A stretch of DNA of 64,000 nt. Origin: Clostridia bacterium (lineage in GTDB: Bacteria; Bacillota; Clostridia; Lachnospirales; JAOARL01). Positions within the stretch are counted from its first letter, which is position 1. Each line of letters starts with the position of its first letter. The position numbers were made by a program, and so were the translations under genes. Shown here in pieces: positions 41,316 through 63,641 of this stretch. The DNA lies in the NCBI GenBank assembly GCA_025210555.1, contig JAOARL010000019.1, positions 338 through 64,337 on the forward strand, written 5' to 3'. Below the pieces are notes generated by a model that searched no databases, was not told where the DNA came from, and was given only the letters and a program-made list of their open reading frames with translations.

Positions 41316-42290
41316 GATATTCTCTCCTTCATATGTTTATTATTGAGAGAAGTATAGCACAAAAAGTATAAAAAAGGGTGAAAAACTTCTAACGAAATTA
41401 AGAGCTATAAGTAAGATTACGTTTGCAATTTCAGAACAACATCACTTAAATAGGCAAAGTTAAAAGGAATGAAAAATAAAAATGGGGGGATTTGGTGCGG
41501 AAAAATATTTTGGAAAAATTTCTGATTTATCAAATTAAGAATAAAAAAACATAAAACTAGAGAAAACCCTTCTAACATTTAAAAAAATTTTAATGCTGTT
41601 TTTTGAAAAAATCACATATATTTATATAAGAGCTACCACAACCTTCTTAAAGCTGCCACTTTGAATGGGGGGACTAATGAAATAGGGGTTTGCAGAGATT
41701 TGAAGTATATGCTATTATCTTCCCAAGAACATCGAAAGATGATTCGAAATTTCTTATGTGTGAGTAACAAATTTAAAAAATAACAATAAAAATGACTACT
41801 ATTGATGCGACACAAAAAACTTTTCTAATTCTAATCAGTAATAGTTATTTTTATATAATAAAGTAAACACACATAAGAAGATAAAAGGAATTAATAGTAG
41901 TACACACACATAAGAATAAAAGTTAAATAAAACAAGTAAATAAGTAATAGAATTTAAATATATAAACTTTGAAAAATATTATAATTTTAATTAATAATTA
42001 GTGATAAAAGTATGTAAATAATAGAAAAAGTATTTAGATGACATTATTGCAACTAATGCTTTGAAAGATAAGAGTCTAAGAGCTTTTTTTATAAATTAAC
42101 ATTTTTAAGATTATGTAAAATTAATACAAAAAAGTTATTGTTTATAAGAATAGACTGCTAGCCTTTACAAATAAAAGGGTTATGGCAGGGCGAAGTTAAA
42201 TGACATAATTAGAGATATGTCAAATAGGAATTATAGGCTAAAAATAGAAATGAAATATGAGTAAAAAGATAAGATGGAGGATAATGAATT

Positions 42291-47869: not shown

Positions 47870-47905
47870 AAGGGCAGAAAAATCAAGGGATTTTTATGTC
47901 CTTTT
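47870..47905 (+). terminator. cassette-leader hairpin + U-tract, copy H3
   Basis: aagggcagaaaaatc aag gatttttatgtcctttt, preceded by aatagttatt. RBS and ATG follow within 18 nt. Confidence 0.75.
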
Positions 47906-47922
47906 ATAGTGGAGGAAATTAT

Positions 47923-48996: not shown

Positions 48997-49070
48997 TAGA
49001 GGTTTATTAGAAAAAAAAGAGAAGTATGAAAAATATAAAAAAATAATTAGAAATTTGAGGATGGGTAAAT

Positions 49071-50801
49071 ATGAACAAGCAAATACTATTAAAAAAACTA
49101 AAAATAATGTCAAAAAGTGAAAAAACATTTAAGGAAATAATTTTTGATGAAAAGTTAACTATTTTAAAAAGCGAGTTAGATGGTGGAGACACAACTAATA
49201 GAACTGGAAAATCTTTAATAATGAAAAGTATACCTTATGCATTTGGTGCAGAATTAGAAAAATACACTAAAAACTGGAAAAAATTGAGCATTGTGACTTG
49301 GCTAGAGTTTTCGTACATGAATGACGACTATCTTATTTTTAGAGATGGCGAAAAATTTATGGTTTACAAGAATAATATGATGTTTAATGCTGCAAAAAGT
49401 ATTGGTGAACTTAGAGATGTATATAGTGAATTGTTTGGGTTTAGTATTAAATTGGAGTTATCAAATAGAAGCGGAACTTCAACAATTTATCCAGGAGGAA
49501 TGTTGCTACCATTTTATATAGACCAAGATAAAGGGTGGGATGGTGAAAAACAATCTTTTGCAGATGTTAAATTTATAAAAGATTGGAGAAAGAACATATT
49601 ATACTTTTATACAGGAAGAAGGACAGAGAGATATTATGAAATACTTAAACTAAGAAGTGAACCAACAAAGAAAAGAGAAAAACTGAAGCATGAAAAAGCA
49701 GTCTTAGATAAATTAATTGATGAAGAAGAGTTTAAAAATATTGAATCATTAAAGGTTAATTTTGATTTAAAAGAATTTGAAGAAGAAACCAAAGAATTGA
49801 GCAATCTTTTAAATAAAAATTTAAAGCAAAAAGAATTGATACGAGAAAAACTTTTAAAACTTCATAATAAGCAATTTGAAATTAATCAAGAATATGAAAA
49901 TGCTAAAATTGGATTGGCAGAGTTAAGAAAAGATATTGATTACTTAAATAGCGAAATAAGAACAGAGGTTATTTTATGTCCGCTTTGTGGAACACGACAC
50001 GAAAATGATATTGAAAATAGATTTCTTGTTTACAAAGAAGAAAAAGAGTGTATTAAAATTATTGATAAATGCATTAATGAAGAAAGTAAAATTGCATTAG
50101 AATTAGAAAATGTTAAATTCGAACTTGAAGATATTTCAGCTGAGGTAAAAGAAATACAAGATATAATGGCTAGAAAGAAGGAAAATATAACATTTGAAGA
50201 AGTTGCAAAAGCTGAAGGAGTTAAACATCTTATAAAAGAACTTAAAGATAATTTAGAATATGTGGAAGAGAATATTTCAGGTTTGGATGGAGAAATAAAG
50301 AAGTATACAAATGAGATGACTCAAATAACAAAAAAATCTAAAAGCATTGAGGAAAAATTCCAAGCAACATTTAAAGAATATATTAAAACATTAAATGTAG
50401 TAGATTTTGAGGAAGAGGAGATTCATAAATTAGGTGACAAGATAAGCAGTGGAGGTAGTGATACTGCTAGAGCTATCTTGGCGGATTACTTAGCAATATA
50501 CAAGGTTATAGAAGGGAATCAAGCAATGCCTTTATTTCCAATAATAATAGACTCGCCTCGACAACAGGAACAAGGAACATTAAATTCATCAGCAATATTT
50601 GATTTTTTATTGGCAGATGATACAGAGAATGAAAACTATCAGATGATAATTGCTACTACAGAAATAGATAGCAAATATCAAAAAGATGCAAAAGTATATA
50701 ATTTTGTTGAGGTTAAAAGTTTACTTAAAAAAGAAGGATATGAAGAAACTTTTAGAGAATATCAAAATAATATAGCACATTTTTCAGCATGGACATTTTA
50801 A
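49071..50801 (+). CDS. SMC/Rad50-like ATPase with coiled coil (LmuB/DUF3732-like)
   Basis: P-loop TNRTGKSL, a long coiled-coil centre with CPLCG (hook-like), and C-terminal Walker B-like FPIIIDSPRQQEQ. Confidence 0.6.
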   Translation: MNKQILLKKLKIMSKSEKTFKEIIFDEKLTILKSELDGGDTTNRTGKSLIMKSIPYAFGAELEKYTKNWKKLSIVTWLEFSYMNDDYLIFRDGEKFMVYKNNMMFNAAKSIGELRDVYSELFGFSIKLELSNRSGTSTIYPGGMLLPFYIDQDKGWDGEKQSFADVKFIKDWRKNILYFYTGRRTERYYEILKLRSEPTKKREKLKHEKAVLDKLIDEEEFKNIESLKVNFDLKEFEEETKELSNLLNKNLKQKELIREKLLKLHNKQFEINQEYENAKIGLAELRKDIDYLNSEIRTEVILCPLCGTRHENDIENRFLVYKEEKECIKIIDKCINEESKIALELENVKFELEDISAEVKEIQDIMARKKENITFEEVAKAEGVKHLIKELKDNLEYVEENISGLDGEIKKYTNEMTQITKKSKSIEEKFQATFKEYIKTLNVVDFEEEEIHKLGDKISSGGSDTARAILADYLAIYKVIEGNQAMPLFPIIIDSPRQQEQGTLNSSAIFDFLLADDTENENYQMIIATTEIDSKYQKDAKVYNFVEVKSLLKKEGYEETFREYQNNIAHFSAWTF

Positions 50802-50802
50802 C

Positions 50803-50903
50803 GTGAGAAAATGGAGGTTGACTGCGTCGAACCCCCGTCCAAGTTTAGAGCTATTTTTGCATAAGAATTGACGTGAATGTAGCGAGGTACGGTCCATCTC
50901 CAT
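50803..50903 (+). repeat. conserved cassette right-end module R2, ending in the CATCTCCAT core
   Basis: Homologous to 36490-36592. It contains gtcgaacccccgtcc, the reverse complement of ssrA ggacgggggttcgac. The core is at 50895-50903. Confidence 0.75.
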
Positions 50904-51082: not shown

Positions 51083-52300
51083 ATGACTGCTCAAGTCGCT
51101 GTAATGAATAAAAGAGCTGTTGCCTTAGCTACAGATAGTGCTGTAACAATCAATGGTGGAAGTAAAATTTATGATAGTGCTAATAAACTATTTATGTTAT
51201 CAAAAAAGCAACCTGTTGGGATAATGGTATACAGTAATGCAGAATTTTTAAGAGTTCCATGGGATATAATAATAAAAGGTTTTAGGAACTATATCGAATC
51301 TAAAAAGTTTGACTATTTAGGGGACTATAAAAGAGAATTTATGGAATATATAAAATCAAAAAGTGATGAATTCGAACTTGGAAAAACGTTTTCAGTAAGA
51401 AATATATATTCAATGATACTTGAGGATATATACGTTTTCTTAAGATCAAACTATACCGAAAGATACACAGGGGCAGAAGATTTTAATGAACTAATATTTA
51501 ATATTTTAAAGGAATATGACGATATAATAAAAAATGAAAGAGAACTATATGCAGGTTTTGATAATCTTATAGGTGAATTGACTAATTATAAACAAAGTCT
51601 AAATCAAATGATTACAAAAAGATTTGGAAGTTTAAGTAAAAGAAATTTTAATTTAATAAAACAAATTTGTCGTAATTCTTTTAAGAAAGATAGATATCAT
51701 AATGCTATAAGTACAGGTGTGGTTATTGCAGGTTATGGTGAAAAAGAAATTTTTCCAGTACTAGAAAATATAGAGATTAGTACAATGATAGGTAACAGCG
51801 TTGTATATAAGAAGAATGATAAGATTGCTATTAATGAAAGAAGCGATAGTTATGTACATGCTTTTGCTCAAAAGGAAACTGTTAACACATATTTATGGGG
51901 AATTAATGATAGATATATTAATAGTTTTGATGGTATAATAAAAGAAACAGTAATACCATTAAGTAATGATATTGGAAAAGATATGGTTGAAAGAATTTTA
52001 GCTAATTGGCAAAAAGGTATCGAGAAAATATTGGCTGATGCGAGAACTGACAATATTAAACCATTTATGGATGCCATACGCAGTTTGCCTAAGAGTGAAT
52101 TGGGGAATTTAGCGGAATCATTAGTTGATTTAACTTCAATAAAAAGGAGATTTACAATCAATAACTTAAGTAATACAGTTGGAGGTCCTATTGATGTTGC
52201 TATAATATCAAAAGATGATGGGTTTATTTGGTGCAAAAGAAAACATTATTTTGAAGCTGATTTAAATCATCATTTTTTTAAAAATTATTATGAGGGGTGA
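51083..52300 (+). CDS. proteasome beta-subunit-like (Ntn-hydrolase) N-terminal domain protein with a large C-terminal extension
   Basis: The N-terminus M-TAQVAVMNKRAVALATDSAVTINGGSKIYDSANKLFML aligns by eye with HslV/20S-beta. Thr is directly after Met, Asp is at mature position 17 and Lys at about 34. Confidence 0.5.
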   Translation: MTAQVAVMNKRAVALATDSAVTINGGSKIYDSANKLFMLSKKQPVGIMVYSNAEFLRVPWDIIIKGFRNYIESKKFDYLGDYKREFMEYIKSKSDEFELGKTFSVRNIYSMILEDIYVFLRSNYTERYTGAEDFNELIFNILKEYDDIIKNERELYAGFDNLIGELTNYKQSLNQMITKRFGSLSKRNFNLIKQICRNSFKKDRYHNAISTGVVIAGYGEKEIFPVLENIEISTMIGNSVVYKKNDKIAINERSDSYVHAFAQKETVNTYLWGINDRYINSFDGIIKETVIPLSNDIGKDMVERILANWQKGIEKILADARTDNIKPFMDAIRSLPKSELGNLAESLVDLTSIKRRFTINNLSNTVGGPIDVAIISKDDGFIWCKRKHYFEADLNHHFFKNYYEG

Positions 52301-52304
52301 TTAT

Positions 52305-52469
52305 ATGAAAACTAATCTAAAAGATATGCTAGATTTGGAACTTAAAGCAAAAACGTTTGATTATAAATTGGATAATAGTAAGATAAAAAAATCAAAAAAA
52401 GAGGAAAAATTAAAAAAGCATTTAAAAAAGCAAATAAACAAAGAAATGCTATGTTGTTTAAAAAGTTAG
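52305..52469 (+). CDS. 54-aa Lys-rich peptide ending in CCLKS
   Basis: The ATG lies 4 nt after the upstream stop, with GAGGGGTG serving as RBS. It is too short for the supplied ORF track. Confidence 0.35.
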   Translation: MKTNLKDMLDLELKAKTFDYKLDNSKIKKSKKEEKLKKHLKKQINKEMLCCLKS

Positions 52470-52502
52470 GAAAGACATAATAAGCAAAAATTAATAGATA
52501 CT

Positions 52503-52542
52503 AAGGGCATAAAAACTAGAAGAAATTTTTATACCCTTTTTT
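52503..52542 (+). terminator. cassette-leader hairpin + U-tract, copy H5
   Basis: aagggcataaaaa...tttttataccctttttt. No att core lies in front of it. Confidence 0.7.
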
Positions 52543-52653
52543 GTTGAAGTGCAATTATGATAGAAAAAGAAAGATGACACTATTCATGTATTTATGGGGT
52601 ATCAAATTATGAGTAAATAGTTGATTTTTTGATTAATAGAGGGTGAATAAAAG

Positions 52654-53889
52654 ATGACATTAACAAAAATGAGAAGCATGATGAAAGAAATTAATGCCTT
52701 AGCAAAAAATGATGAAAAAAAGGCTAAAGAAGAATTTATCCAGCTGATAAGAGATTTACATAGTGAACGAGAATTTGAAAAAATTTTAGAATTAAGCAGA
52801 ACGGCTAATGGAAAGAAATTTAAAACTGATATTTTTGAAATTGCATATGCATATAGAGAATTAGACTATAATAATGAAGCTGAAAAGATATATAAAGAAA
52901 TATTAAAAAAATATCCTGATAATGTTGCGGTTTTAAATAATCTAACTCTTATTCTTGAAGAAAAAAATGGGATTAGAGATGCTTTTTACTTAATTGAAAA
53001 GGCGTATGCTTTAGAGCCTGAAGATGAAGTTGTTAAAAATAATTATCAAAGAATTGAAGAAAAGATAGCAGAAGTTGAAGCAAGTGAGAGGATGCAAAAA
53101 AATGCATGTTTAAATTTGGAAGATGAAAACGAATTTGTTAGGGCTAAGTTAAATGAATTTATATATAATGTAGAAAAAGATCCAGGTTACAAAAATGAGG
53201 AAATCTATATTGCAAATTGGAAGTTTAAAGTTCTTATGAAAACAAATGAGGGAATAGCTGATTCTTTAAAAATACAGTGGTTAGAAAAAGGATATATAAT
53301 TGATTTAGGGAAAAGAGATAGTAGATATGTTAAATGTTATAAGTTAAATCCGTTTTTGAAGAAATCTTTGGAAGAAATAAAACAATATGAAATAAATAAA
53401 AATTGGATTGAAAATTTTGAAAGTGTTAATAAATTAACTTTGATGAAAATAGATTATTTTAAAAATAAAGTTAGATTAAATAAAGCAAAAAGTAAATATA
53501 GAGATATGTTTTTAAGGGATTATGATGAGATAGTTCTTAATTATATTTTTAAAAATAGTAAATCGACTATTATTTTGGCAGGTTCTTTAGTTGAAATGTT
53601 ATTGATATACTACTGTGAAAAAAAGAAAGTAAAGATAATATCATATACGAGGAATAATAAAAAGGTGTCTAAAAACATTTATGATGTTCAACTTAATGAT
53701 TTACTACTATACTTTGATGAGAATAATATTTTTTCAAAACAATTATTCCATTTAGGTAATATAACAAGAATATATAGAAATTTTATTCATCCTGGAAGAG
53801 AGTTGAAAGAGTCAAATAAATTAGCTTTTTCGCAAGCTGAGATTTGTTATCAAAGTTTGAATGAAATAATAAAAACAGTAATAAGATAA
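52654..53889 (+). CDS. TPR-repeat protein with a C-terminal HEPN-like (RNFIH) module
   Basis: TPR-like AYAYRELDYNNEAEKIYKEILKKYPDNVAVLNNL. C-terminal ITRIYRNFIHPGRE. Confidence 0.6.
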   Translation: MTLTKMRSMMKEINALAKNDEKKAKEEFIQLIRDLHSEREFEKILELSRTANGKKFKTDIFEIAYAYRELDYNNEAEKIYKEILKKYPDNVAVLNNLTLILEEKNGIRDAFYLIEKAYALEPEDEVVKNNYQRIEEKIAEVEASERMQKNACLNLEDENEFVRAKLNEFIYNVEKDPGYKNEEIYIANWKFKVLMKTNEGIADSLKIQWLEKGYIIDLGKRDSRYVKCYKLNPFLKKSLEEIKQYEINKNWIENFESVNKLTLMKIDYFKNKVRLNKAKSKYRDMFLRDYDEIVLNYIFKNSKSTIILAGSLVEMLLIYYCEKKKVKIISYTRNNKKVSKNIYDVQLNDLLLYFDENNIFSKQLFHLGNITRIYRNFIHPGRELKESNKLAFSQAEICYQSLNEIIKTVIR

Positions 53890-54052
53890 TTTGTAAAATT
53901 GTGTCCAGTTTTTAAAATAGGGCGTAGTGAACCCCTATTTAGGAGAAAAGTGATAAATATAGAAAAAAGAGAAAAACTCTGAAGGCTTTATTTATAAAGC
54001 CTTCAAGTTATCTTTTCTATCGAGAGAGGTTGTGGCTAACGTTCTATACAGT

Positions 54053-54062
54053 CCATCTCCAT
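54053..54062 (+). repeat. short ssrA-core copy (ccatctccat)
   Basis: gtccatctccat is shared with 50893-50903. It lies intergenic after a terminator at 53980-54010. Confidence 0.5.
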
Positions 54063-54228
54063 TTTTTGTAATTCTTTATTTATTTTGATAAAGATATGAT
54101 AAGTATAGTTGCAAAAAAATTAAACTATGAAAAAGCTTTACAAAAAACATCGATGAAATTATAATGAAAAAGGGTGTATTTTTGTGAAGATTTTTTTTGT
54201 TAAAAAAATTAAAACAAAATATATTATC

Positions 54229-54265
54229 AAGGGCTAATTATCTAGGGATAATTGCGCCCTTTTTT
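54229..54265 (+). terminator. cassette-leader hairpin + U-tract, copy H6 (variant stem)
   Basis: aagggctaattatc tagg gataattgcgccctttttt. The conserved flanks are kept, and the stem differs from H1-H5 but still pairs. Confidence 0.65.
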
Positions 54266-54455
54266 AATAGAGAAAATATCGTGGAAGTATTGTGAAAGAT
54301 AATTTAAGCAATAGGTGGGCATACATATTTAAGTATGAAGTTAGAGCTTATACAATGAGTAGGTTTATGAAGTTTTAAAAAAATTAAATTGTTTTGAAGT
54401 ACAGGCCGCGTATTTTATTATTACCTTATAAATAATAAGAATTGGAGAGTGTAGA

Positions 54456-54899
54456 ATGACAACTAAATTGATGAATATGTGTATGATAACAAATGAAAAG
54501 GGAGAAATGCTATTTCAAGAAAGAATAAAGAGTTGGAAAGGAGCAGCATTTCCAGGGGGTAAACTGGAAGAATTAGAGAGCGTTATTGAGAGTGTAGTAA
54601 GAGAAGTTAAAGAAGAAACAGGTTTAAATGTATATGAACTTGAGTTTTGTGGATTTAAAACTTGGGTAAAAGAAGATGATAAAGTAACAAATATAGTTTT
54701 TTGTTTTAAAACTAACAAGTTTGATGGAGAACTTATTGAAGAATCTTCAGAAGGAAGACATTACTGGTTATCAAAAGATAAACTGAAAGATATAGAATTA
54801 GCAGATAACTTTGAAGCTACATTAGATTTATATTTTACAGATATGACAGAATTGGTCTGGAAAAAAGAAAACAAAAAATGGAATGAAAATCGCTATTAA
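54456..54899 (+). CDS. Nudix hydrolase
   Basis: Complete Nudix box GGKLEELESVIESVVREVKEETGL (Gx5Ex7REUxEExGU). Confidence 0.85.
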   Translation: MTTKLMNMCMITNEKGEMLFQERIKSWKGAAFPGGKLEELESVIESVVREVKEETGLNVYELEFCGFKTWVKEDDKVTNIVFCFKTNKFDGELIEESSEGRHYWLSKDKLKDIELADNFEATLDLYFTDMTELVWKKENKKWNENRY

Positions 54900-55033
54900 A
54901 TATATTTTAATTTGTTTAGTAGTTATATGAAAAATTAATTGAAAAAGTGTTATTTCATAATATTTCAAAAACAGAACTTGATTACATACGATATATGTTT
55001 TTGAGTTATATTAAAAATAAAGGAGTGTTTAAA

Positions 55034-55963
55034 ATGAGTGATAAAAGAGTAGTATGTATAGGTAATATGACCCATGATACTTTATTACGTGTTAATGATA
55101 TACCTGAACTTGATGACGTAGCGTATGTTAATGAGAACGTTGAATGTATGGGAGGAAGAGGTGCAATCGTTGCTATAGCATTGGGTAGACTGGGAATTTC
55201 AACTGATCTTATTACGTCATTACCAAGTAATGAACTAACAGATAAATATATTGAATTGTTAAATGAAAATAATGTAGAAACTAAAAATATATTTATAGAT
55301 GATAAAGCCAATAAATTATTTGAAGTGGTTGTTGCTATTTCTAAAGAACAATCAAACTGTATTTCTTTTTTTAAGCCAAGTGATATTAAATTTGAAGCGA
55401 ATCAAAAGCAAAAGGAGAAAGTTAGAGCAGCTGATATGGCGTATTTTTCAACTCATAAAAGATCTTTTAATCAAGAATTATTAAATGAAATAGATCCTCA
55501 AAAAACACAAATAATACATAATGTAAGTAGTTATTTCTTACAATCAGAAGAGTATGTTAAGTTAATGTTAGAAAAAAGTAGTGTTTTAGTTTTTAATGAA
55601 CTTGAAGCCAAAAAACTTCTTGAAAATATTCGAGAATTATCTGCAGAAACGATATTTAAAAGTGCTCCAAATCTTGATACTATTTTCATGACGTGTGGAG
55701 AATCAGGTTCAATGATATATGAAAAAACAGGCAAAGTAACTCATGTTGAAGCTAAGATGGCGACAGAAGTAATATCGCCTGTAGGAGCTGGTGATACTTA
55801 TGCAGCAGGGATTGTTTATGGAATAGCGAATGGTTGGGATAATGAATTAAGTGCTAGATTTGCTAGTGAGATAGCATGTCTTTCCGTTGAGAGTGAAACA
55901 TCATATCCAAATTTAGAAAAATTAGATGATTTAACTCTGGAATGTGGGGAGATGGACATATGA
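55034..55963 (+). CDS. PfkB-family (ribokinase-like) sugar/nucleoside kinase
   Basis: GGRGAIVAIALGRLG and the signature SPVGAGDTYAAG. The ATG at 55034 is preceded by AAAGGAGTG. Confidence 0.8.
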   Translation: MSDKRVVCIGNMTHDTLLRVNDIPELDDVAYVNENVECMGGRGAIVAIALGRLGISTDLITSLPSNELTDKYIELLNENNVETKNIFIDDKANKLFEVVVAISKEQSNCISFFKPSDIKFEANQKQKEKVRAADMAYFSTHKRSFNQELLNEIDPQKTQIIHNVSSYFLQSEEYVKLMLEKSSVLVFNELEAKKLLENIRELSAETIFKSAPNLDTIFMTCGESGSMIYEKTGKVTHVEAKMATEVISPVGAGDTYAAGIVYGIANGWDNELSARFASEIACLSVESETSYPNLEKLDDLTLECGEMDI

Positions 55964-56394
55964 AAATCTATCTAGCTGCTTCAGTATTTTCGGTTTTTGA
56001 AAGAGAGCTAAATGTGAGTATTGCGAAAATGATAACTGAGTTAGGAGGTCATTCTGTTTTTCTTCCACAAGAAGTTGCACCACCTGAAACCGAAGATGGA
56101 CTCGATATGGAATATATATATAAAGAATGTAGAGACCATATAGATTCGTCCGATGCAATTTTAGCCATTGTAGATGGTTCAGATGTAGATTCGGGAGTAG
56201 CATGGGAATTAGGATATGCTTTTGCAAAAAATGTTCCAAGTTTGTGCATTAGGACAGATATAAGAAAAGCTGAACATAATGGCGTAAACATAATGATTGA
56301 ATATGGGGCAAGTAAGACGATTCATTTAACTAAATACCATCAAAAAATAAAGGACGTTGTAGATAGAATAATTGAAGAATTGGAGGCAATATAA
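55960..56394 (+). CDS. nucleoside 2-deoxyribosyltransferase-family protein (NDT / DNPH1 / BlsM-like N-glycosidase fold)
   Basis: MKIYLAASVF...DGSDVDSGVAWELGYAFA, with the catalytic-Glu context typical of PF05014. ATGA overlap with the kinase stop. Confidence 0.7.
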   Translation: MKIYLAASVFSVFERELNVSIAKMITELGGHSVFLPQEVAPPETEDGLDMEYIYKECRDHIDSSDAILAIVDGSDVDSGVAWELGYAFAKNVPSLCIRTDIRKAEHNGVNIMIEYGASKTIHLTKYHQKIKDVVDRIIEELEAI

Positions 56395-56395
56395 T

Positions 56396-56854
56396 ATGGA
56401 GAAAAAAAAGATTTTAATGTCAATTAATACAAAGTACTCAAGAAAAATTTTTAAGGGTACTAAATTATGGGAATTTCGTAAAGCAATCCCTAGAATAGAA
56501 GAGACTGATGAATTAGAAGTTGTAGTATATTCATCACAAGAAGAGAAAGCAATTGTAGGAAGTTTTAAAGCAGGTCAAATATTGAGATGTTCACTAGATG
56601 AATTAATGGAAAAAACAGGATATAGTGATGATTCAGATGCTGTTGAATGGTTCAGTGCATACTATGGTGATAGGAAAATTTGTAGCGCCATTGAGGTTAT
56701 AGAACCGATAGAGTACGAAAAGCCGATTACACTTAACGAAATTAGAGAAGTCATTCCATCATTTAGACCTCCTCAAAATTTTGTGTACATAACATCGGAG
56801 AGTAATCTTGAAGAGGTGCTTGAACCTTTTGAAGTAGGTGAAGTAGGTGAATAA
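56396..56854 (+). CDS. ASCH (PUA-like) domain protein
   Basis: ILMSINTKYSRKIFKGTKLWEFRK...VVVYSSQEEKAIVGSF...FRPPQNFVY matches the ASCH/COG4933 pattern. Confidence 0.65.
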   Translation: MEKKKILMSINTKYSRKIFKGTKLWEFRKAIPRIEETDELEVVVYSSQEEKAIVGSFKAGQILRCSLDELMEKTGYSDDSDAVEWFSAYYGDRKICSAIEVIEPIEYEKPITLNEIREVIPSFRPPQNFVYITSESNLEEVLEPFEVGEVGE

Positions 56855-57935
56855 ATTAGTCGAACCAAAATTAAGTGTAGTTGAATTAGATAAGATAATT
56901 TTGCGTAGATTAAAAGATTATCCCGATTATCATAAAGAGTTTATTGGAGCAGTTACCAATAGTATAAAAAATGACTATGATGAGATTACAGATGATTTTG
57001 CTAAAAATCTGATCGCGGTAGATAAAAAAGGATATGATGAATTTGGATATTTTACATTGGGAAAAGATATCTGGTTGATATTTGATAAAAATACAAATGA
57101 ATTTTTAGGATTTGAGGTAATAACTAGGAAACGTGGTGGAAGTATTAAATTAGGACCAACTTATCTTAAACCTGAGGCTCGAGGGGGGGGATATGCAGTA
57201 CAAATGATAGAAGGATTATGTAGGATATATGCATCCAAGGGAGCTAGGAAAGTTTATGTTACAGCTCCATTAGGTCATAAATCTACAGCAATTTTAGATT
57301 TTAATCATTTAAATTTAAAATTAGAAGCTATACTGCATAATCATTATTCAAAAGGGTCCTCGGAAAGGATATGCGGAAAATTTATTAATGATAATTCGTC
57401 TGTAAATACAATGGTTCCACGAGTTAAAAGCGGGAATAAGAAGATTATTAATATATATGAAGATGGATTAAGGTATGTCGAATACGATGAGTTTTCAGAA
57501 TTTATAATTGAGAATATGAAGCCTAATTATAATGATATAGACCATACTTTTGTAGAATCCATTTTTAATGGTGTTAAAATGGGAATTGAAACAAAGTATG
57601 AAAAGAAAGGAAAAGTAGCATTTACTTTCTTTTCAAATGATGCATTTGAAGGTATTGCTGTCGCAGCACTTAAAAGAGGTGGAGTTTTTAAAGTCGCACC
57701 GTTCTTACTTACGGATGAATGTATTACAATGGTTAATGTAACGAATATAATTAAGAAAATTGAAGAATATGCTATGAAGTATAAAAGAAGAAAAATTACG
57801 ATTTTATTGCCTGTTCGTGATTTAAATATTGCTAATATTTTATCTCAAAATTATTTCATTTCAGAAGGTGTTTTACGAGAACCTTATAAAGATGGAGTTG
57901 ACATTGTAGTGTTTTCAAAGGAATTAAGTATATAG
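56847..57935 (+). CDS. GNAT-family acyltransferase-like protein (possibly two GNAT-like halves)
   Basis: LKPEARGGGYAVQMIEGLCRIYASKGARKVYV resembles the acyl-CoA-binding motif A. GTG start overlaps the ASCH stop by 8 nt. Confidence 0.5.
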   Translation: MNKLVEPKLSVVELDKIILRRLKDYPDYHKEFIGAVTNSIKNDYDEITDDFAKNLIAVDKKGYDEFGYFTLGKDIWLIFDKNTNEFLGFEVITRKRGGSIKLGPTYLKPEARGGGYAVQMIEGLCRIYASKGARKVYVTAPLGHKSTAILDFNHLNLKLEAILHNHYSKGSSERICGKFINDNSSVNTMVPRVKSGNKKIINIYEDGLRYVEYDEFSEFIIENMKPNYNDIDHTFVESIFNGVKMGIETKYEKKGKVAFTFFSNDAFEGIAVAALKRGGVFKVAPFLLTDECITMVNVTNIIKKIEEYAMKYKRRKITILLPVRDLNIANILSQNYFISEGVLREPYKDGVDIVVFSKELSI

Positions 57936-57954
57936 AAGAATGAGTTGATATATA

Positions 57955-59061
57955 ATGGATAGGAATATAAAAGAAAAAAAATGCAACGATTTTGAAAATC
58001 AAAAAACAGTAATGAATATTGAGGAATGGCATAATGTTGTTAATGATAAATTAGGTATTAGTGGTGGAACTATTTATAGTTCGTCAGGATCAACTGGTAA
58101 TAGTAAGAGCATAATTTATACAGATGATGTCATGAATGCTGCAGTAAGGAGAACTAAGGAATTTATAAGTTTAACTCCACTATTAAGCAATTGCAAAATA
58201 GCAATTTTGTGGGGGTATGGATTATTTCCACCAGCATCTTTTTATAATCGCGCTTTAAGTGAGATGGGAAATATTGTATATCCATTTGGATCAGGAAGAA
58301 ATTTTCCTAGTGAATTGAAAGCTACAAAATTAGGTGAAATAAAGCCAAAAGTAATTATAGGTATGCCTAGTTATATACTAAGGATATGTAATATCCTAAA
58401 AGAAAAAAAATTACTAGAAAAAGTAAGCGAAAAATTGGAGTTTATAATAACTGGTGGTGAAGTTTTGACGACCTTCTACCGTAAGACCTTGGAAGAAGAA
58501 TTTGGAGTTAAGGTCTTCGATCACTACGGCATGCTACAGGCTCCAATGATAGCAGGAGAATGTTCTGAAGGTAAAATGCATATATCTAAAGAGTATAAGT
58601 CAGAAGTCTTGATGAGCGATTCAAAAATTTCAGAGATGGGGCGAGGAATTTTATTATTGTCGAGTGAAAAAGCTTGGTTTCCGTTAGAGTTAGAACGTTT
58701 AAATGTGGAAGATAATGTAATACTGAGTAAAGATAAATGTTCTTGTGGATATGAAACACCCACTATAAAAATAATAGGAAGAAGTAACTTGAAATATAAA
58801 GTGCGAGGACAATTAGTTGATTTTGATGAATTAATAACTAGGTTGAATGTATTAGGATTTGAGAATAAATACTTTGTTGAGGTTAAAGATTTTAATAACG
58901 AATTGATATTTCATATTAGCAATGAAATATCTAAAGAGAAATTTAAAGAGGAAGTAAATAAAATTATTTCATTTACATACTTTGTTGAGAGTCATGAAAA
59001 GATTGAATTTTTACTAACAAATACAGGTAAAATTAAGCGCATAATAATTAGAAATAATTAG
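57955..59061 (+). CDS. adenylate-forming enzyme, PaaK / F390-synthetase-like (short ANL-superfamily ligase)
   Basis: SSGSTGNSKSIIYT (the P-loop-like A3 motif), ITGGEVL, DHYGMLQAP and a C-terminal NTGKIKR lysine. Confidence 0.65.
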   Translation: MDRNIKEKKCNDFENQKTVMNIEEWHNVVNDKLGISGGTIYSSSGSTGNSKSIIYTDDVMNAAVRRTKEFISLTPLLSNCKIAILWGYGLFPPASFYNRALSEMGNIVYPFGSGRNFPSELKATKLGEIKPKVIIGMPSYILRICNILKEKKLLEKVSEKLEFIITGGEVLTTFYRKTLEEEFGVKVFDHYGMLQAPMIAGECSEGKMHISKEYKSEVLMSDSKISEMGRGILLLSSEKAWFPLELERLNVEDNVILSKDKCSCGYETPTIKIIGRSNLKYKVRGQLVDFDELITRLNVLGFENKYFVEVKDFNNELIFHISNEISKEKFKEEVNKIISFTYFVESHEKIEFLLTNTGKIKRIIIRNN

Positions 59062-59588
59062 AATCAATTTTTTGAAGAATAAAAGTAGTGAAATAGTAAA
59101 ATTGACTATTATATAACACAAATAATTAGAATATATTATAAGGCTAGGCATAAATAAATTTGTGTCAGCCTTTTTTTGAAAAAGGAAAAGTTAAGATGTC
59201 GGAATATATATTTGAATTTAAATAAAAACTTCTAACGCCAAAATAGAACAAAACGTAACAAAGATTCATGTACAAATAATAAAAAGGTTGGAAAAGCTTT
59301 TGTGAATGGGAGAGTTGGAAGCCGAAAGAATCTAAACAAAGAAACATATAGCTATAGGTGGTTTGACTCCCCTCAGCGTGTCGAACTCCGTATAGTTATC
59401 ATAATTATGATAACACTAATATTATTAGAAGAGATATAGTCTAGATAGAATGATAGTATATGGTAAAACTAACAAAAAACAGAATATTGCGAAATATAGC
59501 ATTCTGTGTTACAATTGTATAAATTAATGAGAAAATAACGTTATTCGTTATTTTTTTGTTTTCAAATAATTAACTGAATGGAGAATAT

Positions 59589-60551
59589 ATGATAAGTAAG
59601 ATACTAGGGAAAAAAGATAAGATAATAGATACATTTATTAAATTGAATGGTAAAAGTGAATTAAGCAGATTAAATAGAAAAAGGAATTCGGAATTAGATG
59701 CATATGCAAAAGGTCTAATAACAGGGAATGGAAGAGAAACTTTAAAAGCCGCAAGAAGAACAATCCTTATCGAAGATGCTATAAGATATGAAGAGCATAG
59801 ATGTATAATTAATGAAATTATTAAAGCAGCGTCAGAAGAAGATATTGCTACAAAAGAAATAGTAAGTATGATCGTAAGCAATGAGGAGTTTTTTACAAAA
59901 TTAGATGAAAAATATGAAGCTAGAGTAGTTGATTATGTAAATGCATTCAATGAAACAAGCGGTAAAAAAATTAGTTTGGATAGAGTTCTAACTAGTTTAA
60001 ATAATGTAAAAGTGAATATAATGAATGAAGCAAATGTAACAAGTAGAGATGAAGCTGGAAGAACAGATGTTAGTGGTTTAGGAGATGGAGAGGGAGTAAT
60101 TAAAAATATCTGGGACGAAATAAATGTATTTACAGCTCCTAAAAGCAGAAGAGATAATCAATCAATACTTAATCACGAACTTACACATGTAGCATTTTAT
60201 GATTATGGATACGAAGAGAGCAGCACTACAAAAGGTTTTGTAAGCATAAATAGTATTAGAAATGGTAAACCTGTACAAGTGAATAGAAATGAAGAGGAAT
60301 TAATAGTAGATGATTACACTAGAAAAATTGATGCATTTTTGGGAATAGAACATCATGAGTCTGATAATATGAGTAAATATGTGAGCTCTCAAGTTGGAGG
60401 TATTATAGATAAGATAGAGCCTTGGGATGATTCAAAGACTAATGCAAAAAATGTTAGAAATTTAAAGGAAGCATCAGAAGCAGCAAAAGAGAATTATTGG
60501 AAAAACGTAATGTTTAACATGGATAATGGTAAAAATCCATTTGAATTTTAG
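59589..60551 (+). CDS. hypothetical protein with HExxH metallopeptidase-like motif
   Basis: ILNHELTHVAF. No other recognisable feature. Confidence 0.55.
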   Translation: MISKILGKKDKIIDTFIKLNGKSELSRLNRKRNSELDAYAKGLITGNGRETLKAARRTILIEDAIRYEEHRCIINEIIKAASEEDIATKEIVSMIVSNEEFFTKLDEKYEARVVDYVNAFNETSGKKISLDRVLTSLNNVKVNIMNEANVTSRDEAGRTDVSGLGDGEGVIKNIWDEINVFTAPKSRRDNQSILNHELTHVAFYDYGYEESSTTKGFVSINSIRNGKPVQVNRNEEELIVDDYTRKIDAFLGIEHHESDNMSKYVSSQVGGIIDKIEPWDDSKTNAKNVRNLKEASEAAKENYWKNVMFNMDNGKNPFEF

Positions 60552-60656
60552 ATAGAGATTTTAAACTTAATAACTATAAATATTTTTCAAAAAATTTTAA
60601 TGTACTTAATTAGTGTTAAAGTATATATAATCATATAAGTAGAAAGGAATTTTATT

Positions 60657-61748
60657 ATGGGAGTTAAAATTAACATGATAAAAAAAGTAACTGGGGAAAA
60701 GTTGGATTTGCAAAATAAGTTAGATGCAATTAAAGTAATAATGCTTTCTGTATTACCTTTTGTAAATGGACAAGATATACTAGATTTGGTAAGAGATGGT
60801 GTTTTAGGGAATAGAGAGTTAGGGCTTGTGATTGAATTTAAAAAAGGGTTGAATGAAGATTTCTACACAGAAACTTATTTAGCAGGAGCAATAAATAAAT
60901 TTACATTTTTGCAAGTTATGGAAAGTATGAGTTTTAATGAAGAAAGCTTAACTAAAATTTTTGAGTCTGATATAGATTCAAAAGCTATAGAAGAAAAAGC
61001 TTTTATATGTAAACATGTACCAAAAGAATTTTTTATGGATCAATTTGACAAAGGTAATATAAGTAATATAAATGCATATTTTGATAACTTAGTTTTTGAT
61101 GAAGATACATATCAAAGATATATAGATGATGGTTCTATAAGTGATTATAATTTAGAAAGTGCAATATGTGTATCTAGCAAACTTTCTGAGACTTTTATAA
61201 ACAAGCAAATAGAAGATGGTGTGTTTAAGGACAATCATATTGAGAAAGTATTGTTATTTCAAAAAAAAGTAACAAATGACTTTAGACTTAAACATATAGA
61301 TGTCATTGGTGAAAATTCAATAAGTTACTTTATGAAATTTAATAAAAATGAATTAACAGACGATATTTTGATTAAATTAATAGAGAGAGGTTTGTATGGG
61401 TATAATTTTGAAGCATTACTAACTACTCAAAATATTAATGAAAGAATAATATCAAAAATTATTGAAGTAAAACCAGTATCTGATCTAGTAGATACAAGAA
61501 GTAGAGCTTTCATGAATCCAAATACGACGCCTGAAGCAGTAGAAAAACTTACGAGCTTAACTGGTGAATTAACTTACTCAGAAAAAGAGATTTTAGCAGC
61601 AAGAGAAAAAACGCCTGAGGAAGTCAGTCAGTTTGGTGTTATTGATTATAGTGAAACTATAGGTAATAAAGAAGTTGTAAATAATCAAATAGATGTACAA
61701 ATAGGAAAACAAACAGATAAACAAATAGGGACAGGAGAACTTAAGTAA
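60657..61748 (+). CDS. hypothetical protein
   Basis: A 363-codon ORF with no motif. Confidence 0.6.
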   Translation: MGVKINMIKKVTGEKLDLQNKLDAIKVIMLSVLPFVNGQDILDLVRDGVLGNRELGLVIEFKKGLNEDFYTETYLAGAINKFTFLQVMESMSFNEESLTKIFESDIDSKAIEEKAFICKHVPKEFFMDQFDKGNISNINAYFDNLVFDEDTYQRYIDDGSISDYNLESAICVSSKLSETFINKQIEDGVFKDNHIEKVLLFQKKVTNDFRLKHIDVIGENSISYFMKFNKNELTDDILIKLIERGLYGYNFEALLTTQNINERIISKIIEVKPVSDLVDTRSRAFMNPNTTPEAVEKLTSLTGELTYSEKEILAAREKTPEEVSQFGVIDYSETIGNKEVVNNQIDVQIGKQTDKQIGTGELK

Positions 61749-61783
61749 ATATATAATAATAAATAAAAACAAAGAGGTGTAAA

Positions 61784-62665
61784 ATGATTTTATTAGATGA
61801 GAGCTATTCTTATGAAGAAGTTAAACAATTTGACCATGAAAGAAAAGACAGAACTACTGAAGTAGCCGATGGTATTAAACTTGTTGAAAAAGTAGAATTT
61901 GAAGTTGATGGCGATAAAATAGTTGTACAAACATTTAGAGGGACAAACTATTTTGGCTACAGAGGTTTTAGTTCTGATAGATCAATAGAAGAAAAAAGAA
62001 TTTATAAAAATGATAGATTAATTAAATTAGAACTACAAGGTTCAGATGAAAGTAAAACTAGAAGAAAGCGTAAAGAAGAAAGATACTATATAGAAGATAC
62101 TAAAGATAAAGAGTTAACTAGAGAAGACTATATAGGTAGATTAACTCAAAGAGGATTTGATACAGATGAATCTTACATAAGCTTTGTTAGTTTAGATTCA
62201 AAATATTGTCATGCATATCCAGAATTAACTAAACACAATGCTGTGTTTAATTCATTAACAAGACCTGTTTTAAATAAAGATAATGAGGTCATTGGAGAAA
62301 TAAGTGCATATACTAGTAGACATGGAGTATTAGATAAAAATATGAGTATTGATATGCATGTTATACTAAAAGGAAATATACATGAAGCAACGCTAAATGG
62401 TATTGAAGATAATTATATTGAAGGTATGAGTATGAAAGGAAAGCGAATTTCAGTAAAAAAAGATGCAAAAAGTAAGAGGAATGAACTTTATACACTTGAA
62501 GGTGTAAGTGAAAAAAAGGGGCTTTTAAAAAGTATTGAAAATGAAGTTATGGGTAAAGCAACAGATGAGCCAGTTAGAGTCTTAAATATTTGTGATACAG
62601 AAGGATATAAGTATGATATGCTTCTAGAACAAGTTATAGAAGATAGTTTAGATATGGATATTTAA
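61784..62665 (+). CDS. hypothetical protein
   Basis: A 293-codon ORF with RBS AAGAGGTG. Confidence 0.6.
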   Translation: MILLDESYSYEEVKQFDHERKDRTTEVADGIKLVEKVEFEVDGDKIVVQTFRGTNYFGYRGFSSDRSIEEKRIYKNDRLIKLELQGSDESKTRRKRKEERYYIEDTKDKELTREDYIGRLTQRGFDTDESYISFVSLDSKYCHAYPELTKHNAVFNSLTRPVLNKDNEVIGEISAYTSRHGVLDKNMSIDMHVILKGNIHEATLNGIEDNYIEGMSMKGKRISVKKDAKSKRNELYTLEGVSEKKGLLKSIENEVMGKATDEPVRVLNICDTEGYKYDMLLEQVIEDSLDMDI

Positions 62666-62798
62666 TAAAGAATTAAAATTTTGAATTAACTGCTTGAAAA
62701 TTTCAAAAAAAGAATTATAATTAATATATAAATTATATTAAGGGTTGCTTATCATAGGATGGGTGGCTCTTTTTATTTTATCGAAAAAGGAGGACTAG

Positions 62799-63641
62799 AT
62801 GAAAACAGATTTATTGATAATAGATGGATTAAACTTGTTATTTAGAATGTTTTTTGGAATACCAGCACCAATAAGAAATTCAGATGGTAAAGATATTAGA
62901 GGAATAATAGGATTTACAGGTAGTTTAATTAAAATAATAGAAGAGTTTGAACCATATAAGACAATAGTAATATTTGATACAGAAACTAGTTTAGATGATA
63001 ATGAGAATGATTACTATAAGGCAAATAGGATAAAAGACTGGAATCAAGTAGAAGATGATCAAAATCCATTTACTCAGCTAAATGAAATAATAAAGGTGTT
63101 AGAATTTTTGAAAATAGAATATAGATATGCAGAGCTTTGTGAAGCAGATCAATATATAGCTAACATATGCTATGAAAATACTGTTATTAATAAGGTGATA
63201 GTATCAACAGATAAAGATTATTGGCAACTAATAAATAATAATACATCAGTTTTCTATCCAAGAGGAAAGAAATCTGTTTTATATGATGAAGAAAAGGTAT
63301 ATGAAAAGATAGGGGTTTTACCTATTAATGTTCCAGAATATAAAGCACTAGTAGGTGATTCTAGTGATGGTATACCTGGAATAAAAGGAATAGGACCTAA
63401 AACAGCAGTAGAAATAATAAATGAATTTAAATCAATAGATAATATCAAGAGTGAAATAGGTAAAAGTGAAAATAAAAAAGTATATGATAAATTAAGTAAT
63501 GAATTAGAACAGTTAGAAGAATATTATAAACTAGTAAAATTAGATTACAATGAAAAACTAAATACAAGTATTGAGATAGCTAAGGATGAAAAACTTAAGT
63601 ATAAAACTATGGAGATACTTGAGATTTTAAAAATAAGGTAA
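62799..63641 (+). CDS. 5'-3' exonuclease / flap endonuclease (Pol I N-terminal-domain homolog)
   Basis: LLIIDGLNLLFR, STDKDYWQL and GDSSDGIPGIKGIGPKTA (H3TH). Confidence 0.88.
   Translation: MKTDLLIIDGLNLLFRMFFGIPAPIRNSDGKDIRGIIGFTGSLIKIIEEFEPYKTIVIFDTETSLDDNENDYYKANRIKDWNQVEDDQNPFTQLNEIIKVLEFLKIEYRYAELCEADQYIANICYENTVINKVIVSTDKDYWQLINNNTSVFYPRGKKSVLYDEEKVYEKIGVLPINVPEYKALVGDSSDGIPGIKGIGPKTAVEIINEFKSIDNIKSEIGKSENKKVYDKLSNELEQLEEYYKLVKLDYNEKLNTSIEIAKDEKLKYKTMEILEILKIR

Follow-up and report, generated by a model that had tools for sequence, protein, structure and literature searches.

What can a bacterium make, or protect itself from, with a nucleoside-type kinase, a deoxyribosyltransferase-like enzyme, an acyltransferase, an acid-activating ligase and two candidate hydrolases encoded side by side? 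This question is raised by a 64,000-nt stretch of a Clostridia bacterium genome (contig JAOARL010000019.1), referred to here as the window, in which six co-directional genes on the + strand span positions 54456–59061 and constitute the terminal cassette of a larger array. The genes encode a Nudix hydrolase, a PfkB-family kinase, a protein of the nucleoside 2'-deoxyribosyltransferase (NDT) family, an ASCH protein, a tandem GNAT acyltransferase and a PaaK-like ligase; comparison with homologous loci indicates that PfkB, NDT, ASCH, tandem GNAT and ligase are the conserved core, while Nudix and a histidine ammonia-lyase (HutH) are common add-ons. Our preferred reading, tentative and with a probability of about 35% as judged from sequence, is that the operon makes an N4-acyl-deoxycytidine nucleotide analogue and carries two built-in erasers, the Nudix and the ASCH proteins. 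All steps of this proposed pathway are taken from the chemistry of the enzyme families.

A gene set kept together across lineages

The gene neighbourhood is real and is selected as a unit. In about 17 of 18 independent lineages the PfkB, NDT, ASCH, GNAT and ligase genes are found on one strand and follow one another in a fixed order, with stop and start codons usually overlapping; their homologues share 35–60% protein identity in loci whose GC content ranges from 24 to 58%. The sole exception to this order appears in the loci L006–L008 (homologous loci are designated by L numbers), where a divergent ASCH gene is located a few genes downstream. Synteny across some 18 lineages rules out a chance juxtaposition, and the conservation of the six-gene neighbourhood, a point that an earlier note on this DNA had left to be searched, holds for the core order. 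The ligase gene is found directly after GNAT in every locus reaching past GNAT. Nudix is an accessory gene that stands ahead of PfkB in about 11 of 17 lineages; it comes in two forms, not linked to each other by tblastn, both of which take up this position.

The operon is apparently undescribed, rare and horizontally spread. No published description was found in the literature searched on the gene combination and on its parts. A search of a genome collection holding one genome per species, with about 185,000 species, yielded six loci, four of them in metagenome-assembled genomes (MAGs) of Candidatus Saccharibacteria, one in a Bacillales MAG and one on a short contig binned as Muribaculaceae, and 14 further loci were recovered from metagenome contigs. 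The tandem GNAT accounts for 43 protein clusters among 5.8 billion sequences, and the NDT subfamily for 34 close protein clusters, present on contigs that match the GNAT-family contigs in length; judged from these sequences, the NDT subfamily is dedicated to this operon.

The operon is an accessory and horizontally mobile trait. Its L006 copy lies on a conjugative element, L015 contains type IV secretion system genes and a serine recombinase, the L032 copy is carried by a plasmid- or phage-like contig, L034 is Tn7-like cargo beside a dCTP deaminase gene, and the L009 copy is located next to a type III restriction-modification system and a UvrD-PDDEXK protein. At DNA level, the 4.8-kb block of the window showed no similarity to GenBank phages or PLSDB plasmids. 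In L019 a tRNA gene (7455–7527) stands about 200 nt upstream of the Nudix gene, which parallels the ssrA linkage of the window and suggests integration at tRNA-like genes.

The enzymes and their predicted chemistry

The NDT-like protein is the enzyme whose identity most directly shapes the pathway. The earlier note had read it as an NDT-like glycosidase resembling CMP or dNMP hydrolases; the family assignment stands (PF05014, 1.5e-17, 64.2 bits against a cut-off of 28.8), but not the likeness to those hydrolases. Sequence searches of the PDB retrieved DpNDT (7o62, 2.5e-12), E. faecalis PDT (7m5h, 2.6e-11) and BpNDT (5e-9), while Rcl/DNPH1 reached only E-values of 0.16–0.5 and neither MilB nor BlsM gave a match at E up to 1. 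The AlphaFold model (predicted local distance difference test score, pLDDT, 89.8) led to the same order by fold, with Foldseek ranks 1–30 all occupied by NDT/PDT chains at TM-scores up to 0.77, DNPH1 from rank 31 and the CMP glycosidase BcmB (4jen) at rank 44. No variation was seen across 27 sequences in Y4, D72, D77 and E83, among them the IYLAA Tyr and the DSGVAWELG Glu. The phosphate loop of DNPH1 is a Gly/Ser-rich stretch; the sequence after strand 1 in the window protein is the NDT-like YLAAxxF, this loop having been judged by eye. According to PMC11204291, which quotes Sikowitz 2013, a Tyr hydrogen-bonded to the catalytic-site Glu goes with 2'-deoxy specificity and is replaced in CMP glycosidases, and, according to PDB entry titles, Y7F mutants of NDT have been crystallised with ribonucleoside ligands. 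Sequence rank, fold rank and the invariant Tyr argue against a nucleotide N-glycosidase of the DNPH1/Rcl, BlsM, MilB or BcmB type. Since the protein is closest to true NDTs in sequence and in modelled fold and keeps the Tyr, base exchange on deoxynucleosides appears more likely than release of cytosine from CMP.

The ASCH and GNAT proteins seem to form a functional pair. The ASCH protein is a marginal match to PF04266 (1.6e-4, 22.7 bits against a cut-off of 21.2), but it matches the PADLOC model PDC-M11B at 6.9e-25 and, in the PDB, ZmASCH at 7e-7; this closest solved relative has been described as a single-stranded RNA ribonuclease. Its octapeptide GTKLWEFR belongs to a pattern, G-[TSK]-K-x-[WY]-E-[FY]-R, that is invariant in 19 homologues. 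In a 2026 preprint, all 19 ASCH proteins tested, including the GKER type, are reported to deacetylate N4-acetylcytidine (ac4C), the Lys and the Glu being essential in Glu-type proteins, and ASCH proteins remove ac4C from tRNA (10.64898/2026.02.27.708502); YqfB hydrolyses N4-acylcytosine derivatives (PMC6972931). The window protein is not of the YqfB type (GKTR), as it has Glu instead of Thr and 152 aa compared with about 103–110 aa, and no YqfB structure was retrieved at E up to 1. Hence, the idea of an N4-acylcytidine amidohydrolase put forward by the earlier note is credible on account of the invariant GxKxxExR motif and the activity of the family, but its YqfB-type form is not maintained. 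We predict that the ASCH protein is an N4-acylcytosine amidohydrolase, or a reader, paired with the GNAT.

In the case of the GNAT itself, the Pfam score was below threshold (18.2 against a cut-off of 20.7) and sequence searches gave no PDB match. The predicted structure, in turn, contains two GNAT lobes (pLDDT 94.1, predicted TM-score 0.91), and Foldseek returned RimL, the tandem GNATs VipF and that of the clavulanate pathway (2wpw), Eis and MccE with probability 1.0, so that the earlier GNAT call is confirmed by fold and, on the model, the protein is unambiguously a tandem GNAT. A CoA-loop-like motif, RGGGYA, is present in the N-terminal lobe only, whereas KRGGxxKxxP is repeated in both halves, and some 17 Arg/Lys positions are conserved in the family. 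Among 1.84 billion representatives, a profile search collected 439 relatives falling into two size classes, and in many proteins of this wider family the GNAT is joined to a domain of the ASCH subfamily found in the window; all five long-form members scanned turned out to be ASCH–tandem-GNAT fusions, with the ASCH domain N-terminal in four and C-terminal in one. Such fusions are strong evidence that both proteins act on one substrate, and they fit a writer/eraser pair. Together with the invariant ASCH motif and the ac4C activity of the family, they make the notion of a built-in hydrolase reasonable.

Two of these fusions, of about 500 aa (L036, 7001–10111; L037, 7001–9982), each belong to a conserved operon of three genes, the other two of which encode a protein of about 260 aa, with a hydrophobic N-terminus and, by eye, probably two transmembrane helices, and a DNA glycosylase of the uracil-DNA glycosylase (UDG) superfamily. 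One of the operons comes from a Halobacteriales genome and the other from a metagenomic contig; the operon in L036 adjoins AAA_5 (McrB-like), Dam and PAPS-reductase-like genes and that in L037 adjoins transposases. This arrangement looks like an undescribed system in its own right.

The ligase retains the features of adenylate-forming enzymes. Its matches in the PDB are the phenylacetate-CoA ligase 9s3l (1.2e-20), AjiA1 (5e-15) and PaaK-like ligases (about 2e-14, ranging to 1e-12), and its translation contains the A3 P-loop SSGSTGNSK and the A10 lysine motif TGKIKR; the PaaK-like assignment of the earlier note is therefore upheld by the PaaK structures and by both motifs. The AMP-binding model remained below the Pfam cut-off, and the NCBIfam PaaK equivalog gave 5.7e-17 but 61 bits versus the 700 required, which discards phenylacetate-CoA ligase itself as the identity of the protein. 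All its nearest structures activate aromatic acids.

The nature of the acid is suggested by a gene that the window does not contain. HutH, of 504–538 aa, joins the operon in most lineages, being intact in about eight and decayed in three or four. It usually comes next after the ligase gene, which it overlaps by 4 nt in L019, but it lies upstream in L009 and is divergent in L022. The four HutH copies scanned all exceeded the TIGR01225 equivalog cut-off (597–658 against 539 bits), and L019 HutH has the Ser-His pair (LSHA), the Ala-Ser-Gly triad (GASGD) of the 4-methylideneimidazole-5-one (MIO) cofactor and the NQEDH Glu of the P. putida histidine ammonia-lyase. The equivalog scores and the Ser-His switch rule out a phenylalanine or tyrosine ammonia-lyase making cinnamate or coumarate. 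Neither urocanase nor any other Hut gene stands beside the operon HutH in the loci examined. Since most lineages have a bona fide HutH in the operon and the nearest structures of the ligase activate aromatic acids, the acid activated is probably urocanate. HutH fragments persist beside otherwise intact operons in L015 (7451–8025), L023 (6767–7864) and L018 (2510–3612), and loss of this gene is recurrent. In the commonest variant sampled (L039–L042; e.g. L042 9817–10709 and L039 14763–16125), genes for a NADAR protein and for a 143-aa protein are placed directly after HutH, and in L039–L041 an extra Nudix gene of 151 aa comes after the latter.

The two remaining enzymes scored well above their Pfam cut-offs, in agreement with the families first assigned to them. 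The Nudix protein (PF00293, 3.5e-17, 63.1 bits against 21.1) has an intact Nudix box, which in its translation reads G-KLEEL-E-SVIESVV-REVKEETGL and follows the GX5EX7REUXEEXGU pattern; its nearest NCBIfam models are YtkD, MutT and pyrimidine (d)NTP diphosphatase, all far below equivalog cut-offs, and it matches PADLOC PDC-S07 at 1.5e-11. The kinase (PF00294, 1.4e-37, 130.1 bits against 25.8) covers profile positions 2–300 of 302 and carries the GAGD motif (VGAGDTY). Its best PDB match is M. jannaschii MJ0406 (2c49, 2.4e-13), which we take to be the nucleoside kinase of that organism, followed by ribokinases, while its score came nowhere near the cut-offs of its NCBIfam neighbours, namely ribokinase, ribose-1-phosphate kinase and nucleoside kinase. 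The predicted substrate of the kinase is a (deoxy)ribofuranosyl compound, phosphorylated at the 5-OH.

A candidate nucleotide analogue and the rival explanations

According to the preferred reading, the ligase would adenylate an aryl- or heteroaryl-acrylic acid and probably form its CoA thioester, the acid being urocanate where HutH is part of the operon, and the tandem GNAT would use the activated acid to acylate an exocyclic amine, for which N4 of cytosine is the likeliest candidate. The NDT would then put the acylated base in place of the one carried by an ordinary deoxynucleoside, and PfkB would phosphorylate the 5'-OH to yield the 5'-monophosphate. Host kinases would raise the product to the triphosphate, a step that in extended versions of the operon may be taken by a pyruvate-kinase-like protein, and DNA polymerases could use this triphosphate, with mispairing. 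The MutT-like Nudix protein would return the triphosphate to the monophosphate and the ASCH protein would strip the acyl group, allowing self-protection or pool control. The compound might thus serve as an antimetabolite in conflict, against phage in the array of the window and possibly against competitors where exporters are attached.

The genomic settings of the operon speak to both uses. In the window it sits in an ssrA-linked array together with Lamassu and KAP NTPases, and the association with defence islands advanced by the earlier note is strong there, but it is inconsistent in other lineages: L009, with its restriction-modification and UvrD-PDDEXK genes, and L034, with its dCTP deaminase gene, show it in part, whereas elsewhere housekeeping or biosynthetic flanks are found. 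That note had also stated that no named defence system matches the operon, and we found only the partial PADLOC matches to PDC-M11B and PDC-S07, PfkB, NDT, GNAT and ligase having no PADLOC model match. In L032 (12472–20811) and L029 (12573–21082) the operon is followed by an extended cluster encoding HutH, a pyruvate-kinase-like barrel, a 296-aa protein, an NTP_transf_5 protein, a carrier protein, an acyl or amino-acid adenylating enzyme and a nitroreductase; the barrel comes after HutH in three lineages. L006 adds a SerRS-like amino-acid:carrier-protein ligase, and both L006 and L032 carry ABC transporters. The extensions in L006, L029 and L032 point to an exported, further-tailored product. 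The secondary-metabolite role, originally mentioned as an alternative, has no less support than defence. Anti-phage and anti-competitor roles are both possible.

A more far-reaching form of the proposal, which we hold to be quite improbable, would be chemical immunity. Urocanate derived from histidine, or another acid, and cytosine would be converted to an N4-acyl-2'-deoxycytidine nucleotide that phage polymerases misincorporate, leading to lethal mutagenesis or a replication block, while Nudix and ASCH would clean the host pool. ASCH and tandem GNAT would then be writer and eraser of marks on cytosine N4, a module widespread in both bacteria and archaea, where it counts hundreds of protein clusters, and re-used with an NDT here and with UDG-like enzymes elsewhere.

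Several observations weigh against a pathway to an acylated deoxycytidine nucleotide or against its use in conflict. The activities of all the enzymes, the product and the phenotype are predicted from sequence, and the acceptor of the GNAT is derived from its ASCH partner alone. NDTs are not known to accept N4-acylcytosines. The Tyr rule is not absolute, as wild-type, Tyr-bearing CtNDT has been trapped in a ribosylated form (8qc0, entry listing). Neither HutH nor a remnant of it is present in the 64-kb window, with none after the ligase, and at least four other lineages also lack it; the acid used by the window operon must therefore have another source. In L039–L041 the ligase gene is broken into ORFs (open reading frames) of 229 and 135 aa, being intact in L042, and HutH is decayed in other copies, so that selection has not been uniformly strong. 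Housekeeping flanks are found at L004, L017, L019, L033 and L039–L042, several of them in Saccharibacteria, and include genes for RNase J, MnmA, the glycine cleavage system, PRPP synthetase, a PBP5-like protein and a tRNA synthetase; the operon is not consistently found in defence islands. Protein searches of GenBank phages and IMG/VR viral contigs detected neither the operon nor the GNAT, and plasmids gave one marginal match. This lack of a phage or viral match for the GNAT also leaves a phage DNA-hypermodification or anti-defence origin unsupported. Finally, builders and erasers encoded together could equally run salvage or detoxification.

The same parts can be arranged into other schemes. 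In the version contained in the earlier note, Nudix and PfkB would funnel (deoxy)cytidine nucleotides to the monophosphate, the NDT-like enzyme would free cytosine and the GNAT would acylate the free base, giving an N4-acylcytosine to be elaborated or exported in larger clusters, with possible depletion of dCTP. The pairing of a kinase with a nucleotide glycosidase is established, e.g. YeiC/YeiN, and in amicetin biosynthesis a CMP hydrolase, a CoA ligase and an acyltransferase-type amide synthase make N4-acylcytosine. NDT-fold CMP glycosidases occur in low-GC bacteria and BcmB is among the structural matches; moreover, the clusters of L006, L029 and L032, with their carrier protein, adenylating enzymes, SerRS-like ligase and ABC exporters, would suit such elaboration. 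This scheme is nevertheless unlikely in view of the enzyme on which it hinges, which matches nucleoside transferases at 1e-12 versus about 0.2–0.5 for Rcl/DNPH1, with MilB and BlsM not found at E up to 1, places DNPH1 and BcmB below 30 NDT chains by fold, keeps a Tyr that speaks against a CMP substrate and continues after strand 1 with the NDT-like YLAAxxF, not a Gly/Ser-rich loop of the DNPH1 type. A salvage or house-cleaning role would instead have the operon recycling acylated or modified (deoxy)cytidines from hosts or from nucleic-acid turnover, with ASCH deacylating, Nudix sanitising, NDT recovering bases, PfkB recovering the sugar or nucleoside and the ligase re-activating the acid. PfkB, NDT and Nudix are classical salvage families, Saccharibacteria depend on salvage, and four of the six genome-collection loci belong to Candidatus Saccharibacteria, with housekeeping flanks; preprints, in the case of EOLA1 by its title, tie ASCH proteins to ac4C removal and nucleotide salvage. 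What makes this role rather improbable is that an ATP-consuming ligase, an acyltransferase and a dedicated HutH would be unneeded and yet are equally conserved, that HutH comes without urocanase or other Hut genes, and that an occurrence in six of about 185,000 species genomes and on mobile elements fits an accessory trait and not core metabolism.

The fusions open a different perspective, in which the tandem GNAT would acylate cytosines in the RNA or DNA of the cell or of an invader, in a toxin-like manner, the ASCH protein would target or reverse the mark, and NDT, kinase and Nudix would handle the released nucleosides. ASCH–tandem-GNAT fusions and PDC-M11 pairs do exist without ligase, NDT or kinase, the haloarchaeal fusion and that of the metagenomic contig share their operons with a two-transmembrane-helix protein and a UDG-superfamily DNA glycosylase, ASCH proteins strip ac4C from tRNA, and the conserved Arg/Lys residues of the GNAT family, about 17 in number, suggest a polyanionic substrate. 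On the other hand, NDT, PfkB, Nudix and the pyruvate-kinase-like protein are small-molecule enzymes translationally coupled to the pair across lineages, no nucleic-acid-binding domain is present besides ASCH, and a simple toxin–antitoxin reading leaves the special acyl donor implied by ligase and HutH unexplained; we consider a nucleic-acid target to be of low likelihood for the operon. Urocanate could, alternatively, act as the base itself, if the NDT loaded its imidazole onto deoxyribose and the kinase made an imidazole-acrylate deoxyribotide, an AICAR- or mizoribine-like antimetabolite whose carboxylate would be amidated by ligase and GNAT. The linkage of HutH to the operon is consistent with this chemistry, NDTs accept imidazole-type bases and the PfkB-family adenosine kinase activates imidazole nucleosides. 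In type II Thoeris, imidazole N-ribosylation by the TIR fold, which is related, gives His-ADPR, and urocanate has been discussed as a candidate base (PMC11204291). Such a scheme, whose chemistry is purely speculative, appears very improbable: it offers no role for an N4-acylcytosine-type amidohydrolase, the gene most tightly tied to the GNAT, and HutH is missing from several intact operons, that of the window included.

Should the preferred reading, a pathway to an N4-acyl-deoxycytidine nucleotide, prove true, the operon would constitute a compact route to an acylated deoxynucleotide analogue, one that takes five to seven genes and can pass from one phylum to another, and would join the few cases of bacteria fighting with modified nucleotides, not with nucleases. 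It would provide a natural source of N4-acyl-dC chemistry, so far known from synthetic work only, a first biological context for the ASCH–tandem-GNAT pairing, including the candidate PDC-M11 and the archaeal fusions, and an unexpected use of HutH outside histidine catabolism. As the hosts include Saccharibacteria and gut or rumen anaerobes, the product could matter in episymbiont–host or community interactions. If the role were salvage, the operon would still represent a new route for handling acylated cytidines.

Genomic setting and comparison with known systems

The six genes form one operon (Table 1). The ORFs, their start codons and all the junctions listed in the earlier note were confirmed on the sequence: PfkB and NDT overlap by ATGA, NDT and ASCH are separated by 1 nt, ASCH and GNAT overlap by 8 nt, GNAT and ligase are 19 nt apart, and a larger gap of 134 nt separates Nudix from PfkB. 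Purine-rich ribosome-binding sites (RBSs) precede each of the six starts, that of the ligase being the weakest; the PfkB start has a GGAG-type site, and alignments with its homologues begin at residue 3–4. The genes are bracketed as one transcription unit by a promoter-like site and a leader hairpin on one side and by a terminator-like hairpin on the other, which, with the junctions, supports the operon as originally claimed. A riboswitch can be dismissed in the 290-nt leader and upstream of the homologous operons, where no Rfam family came near threshold and tRNA genes were the only matches.

Table 1. Genes, candidate signals and boundary elements of the six-gene cassette (window positions)
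Feature	Position	Strand	Description
Degenerate ssrA (tmRNA) 3'-end copy	54041..54062	+	Ends in CCATCTCCAT; 16/22 matches to tmRNA 3' end 33299–33320
Promoter candidate, sigma-70-like TTTACA-17-TATAAT	54137..54165	+	11/12 consensus, best in scanned region; consensus match only
Leader hairpin (H6) and U-run	54229..54266	+	Minimum free energy −16.6 kcal/mol, z −3.2; wider fold z −4.1
Nudix	54456..54899	+	147 aa, MutT-like hydrolase, accessory operon member
PfkB kinase	55034..55963	+	309 aa, ribokinase family; stop overlaps NDT start
NDT-like	55960..56394	+	144 aa, nucleoside 2'-deoxyribosyltransferase-like, PF05014
ASCH protein	56396..56854	+	152 aa, GxKxxExR ('GKER') type
Tandem GNAT	56847..57935	+	362 aa, GTG start, signature gene of the operon
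PaaK-like ligase	57955..59061	+	368 aa, short adenylate-forming ligase
Terminator-like hairpin and U7	59140..59179	+	14-bp stem, minimum free energy −14.9 kcal/mol, z −3.1
Degenerate ssrA T-arm/acceptor-like copy	59358..59393	+	9-nt insertion; alignment to 33295–33320

The window has a GC content of 27% and nearly all its genes are on the + strand. It encodes enolase, a histidine kinase, RNase R and SmpB and contains the tmRNA gene at 32974–33322, downstream of which extends the array (33290–59393), with a copy of the ssrA 3' end preceding each cassette. The 9-mer CCATCTCCA occurs four times in the window versus 0.27 expected, and a fifth copy with one mismatch is found at 36571–36592. Altogether, six tmRNA 3'-end copies in varying states of decay were located, at 33299, 36571, 47792 (22 of 22 positions identical), 50882–50903, 54041 and 59358; the copy at 54041–54062 marks the upstream boundary of the six-gene cassette, and that at 59358–59393 is likely the downstream boundary of both cassette and array. 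Each of the first five is followed within 60–190 nt by a conserved leader, AAT-A-(G/T)TTAT-(T/C)AAGGGC...hairpin...GCCCTTTTTT. When the five leaders are aligned, AAGGGC...GCCCTTTTTT is kept and the hairpin stem varies among cassettes through changes on both sides, including the copy of the six-gene cassette. The hairpin precedes the RBS by about 10–20 nt in most cassettes and lies 190 nt upstream in the six-gene cassette.

The cargo of the array includes two KAP NTPases, an AAA_21/DUF2321 set and, two cassettes upstream of the operon, a complete Lamassu pair at 47896–50801 (LmuA, with a Cap4-type nuclease domain, 1e-60; LmuB, 4e-122; PADLOC). In the cassette directly upstream (51083–53889), neither of the two products, a protein of 405 aa and a TPR protein of 411 aa, has a PADLOC or informative Pfam match. 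A minus-strand tyrosine integrase and a phage replisome-organiser gene at 40236–43196 suggest a separate integrative element nested among the cassettes. Past the last ssrA-like remnant, the region 59589–63641 contains ORFs of 320, 363 and 293 aa without family assignment and a stand-alone 5'–3' exonuclease, and may be either chromosomal flank or another mobile element; on the parent contig, another Nudix gene is found some 8 kb beyond the ligase (L001 20372–20911).

No named defence system or described cluster matches the operon, and the nearest named candidate is PDC-M11 of PADLOC. Both lie on mobile DNA, share the ASCH subfamily (M11B, 6.9e-25) and have the ASCH gene overlapping that of an acyltransferase of about 350 aa, but in PDC-M11 the gene order is reversed with respect to the window, and ligase, NDT, kinase, Nudix and HutH are missing. 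By hidden Markov model the window GNAT is not PDC-M11A, giving no match even at E up to 1, and profile–profile comparison was marginal (E 0.007, probability 5%), whereas true PDC-M11 plasmid pairs match the M11A and M11B models at 1e-137 and 1e-50. Such pairs were observed on plasmids of Paenibacillus larvae and Pseudomonas (L030 3965–5372; L031 3962–5414), the gene of an N-acetyltransferase of 351–352 aa and that of the ASCH protein having 23 nt in common; the flanking genes of the L031 pair encode a small ATP-binding protein and a second GNAT. In the literature searched, PDC-M11 is mentioned only in a strain inventory and no experimental test of it was found.

At the level of single enzymes, the window protein conserves, in comparison with YqfB, TthASCH and EOLA1, the ASCH fold and the catalytic Lys and Glu of GxKxxExR, with Thr taking the place of this Glu in the YqfB type, and their family hydrolyses N4-acylcytosine, N4-acylcytidine and the ac4C of tRNA; unlike these stand-alone salvage enzymes or erasers, the window ASCH is encoded in an operon with its presumed 'writer'. 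Likewise, the type II NDTs DpNDT (7o62), BpNDT (6evs) and CtNDT are the best matches of the window NDT in sequence and fold and have in common with it the Glu, both Asp and the Tyr, but identity is only about 30% and the window enzyme belongs to a separate, small, operon-only subfamily.

As pathways, those of the amicetin family, blasticidin (BlsM), mildiomycin (MilB) and bacimethrin (BcmB), which we compare by pathway logic, offer the same combination of an NDT-fold enzyme acting on an N-glycosidic bond, an acid-activating ligase and an acyltransferase amidating the N4 of cytosine, and nucleoside antibiotic pathways commonly have built-in protecting and deprotecting steps. The operon differs from them in that its NDT is of the nucleoside-transferase type with the deoxy-linked Tyr, sugar-tailoring genes are absent, PfkB and Nudix point to a phosphorylated product, and its hosts are low-GC Firmicutes and Saccharibacteria instead of actinomycetes. 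Prokaryotic viperins are antiviral producers of nucleotide analogues, and dCTP deaminase and dGTPase are nucleotide-pool defences; retron Ec86, in turn, has an NDT-like effector domain reported to deplete adenine derivatives. With all of them the operon would share the concept of defence through altered or depleted nucleotides, but homology is limited to the NDT fold, the operon shows no evident sensor or trigger, and its defence role is predicted. Taken together, by analogy the logic of the operon resembles that of N4-acylcytosine antibiotic pathways and of antiviral nucleotide-analogue producers, while its parts list, with a transferase-type NDT, PfkB, an ASCH-coupled tandem GNAT, a short PaaK-like ligase and HutH, is different from both.

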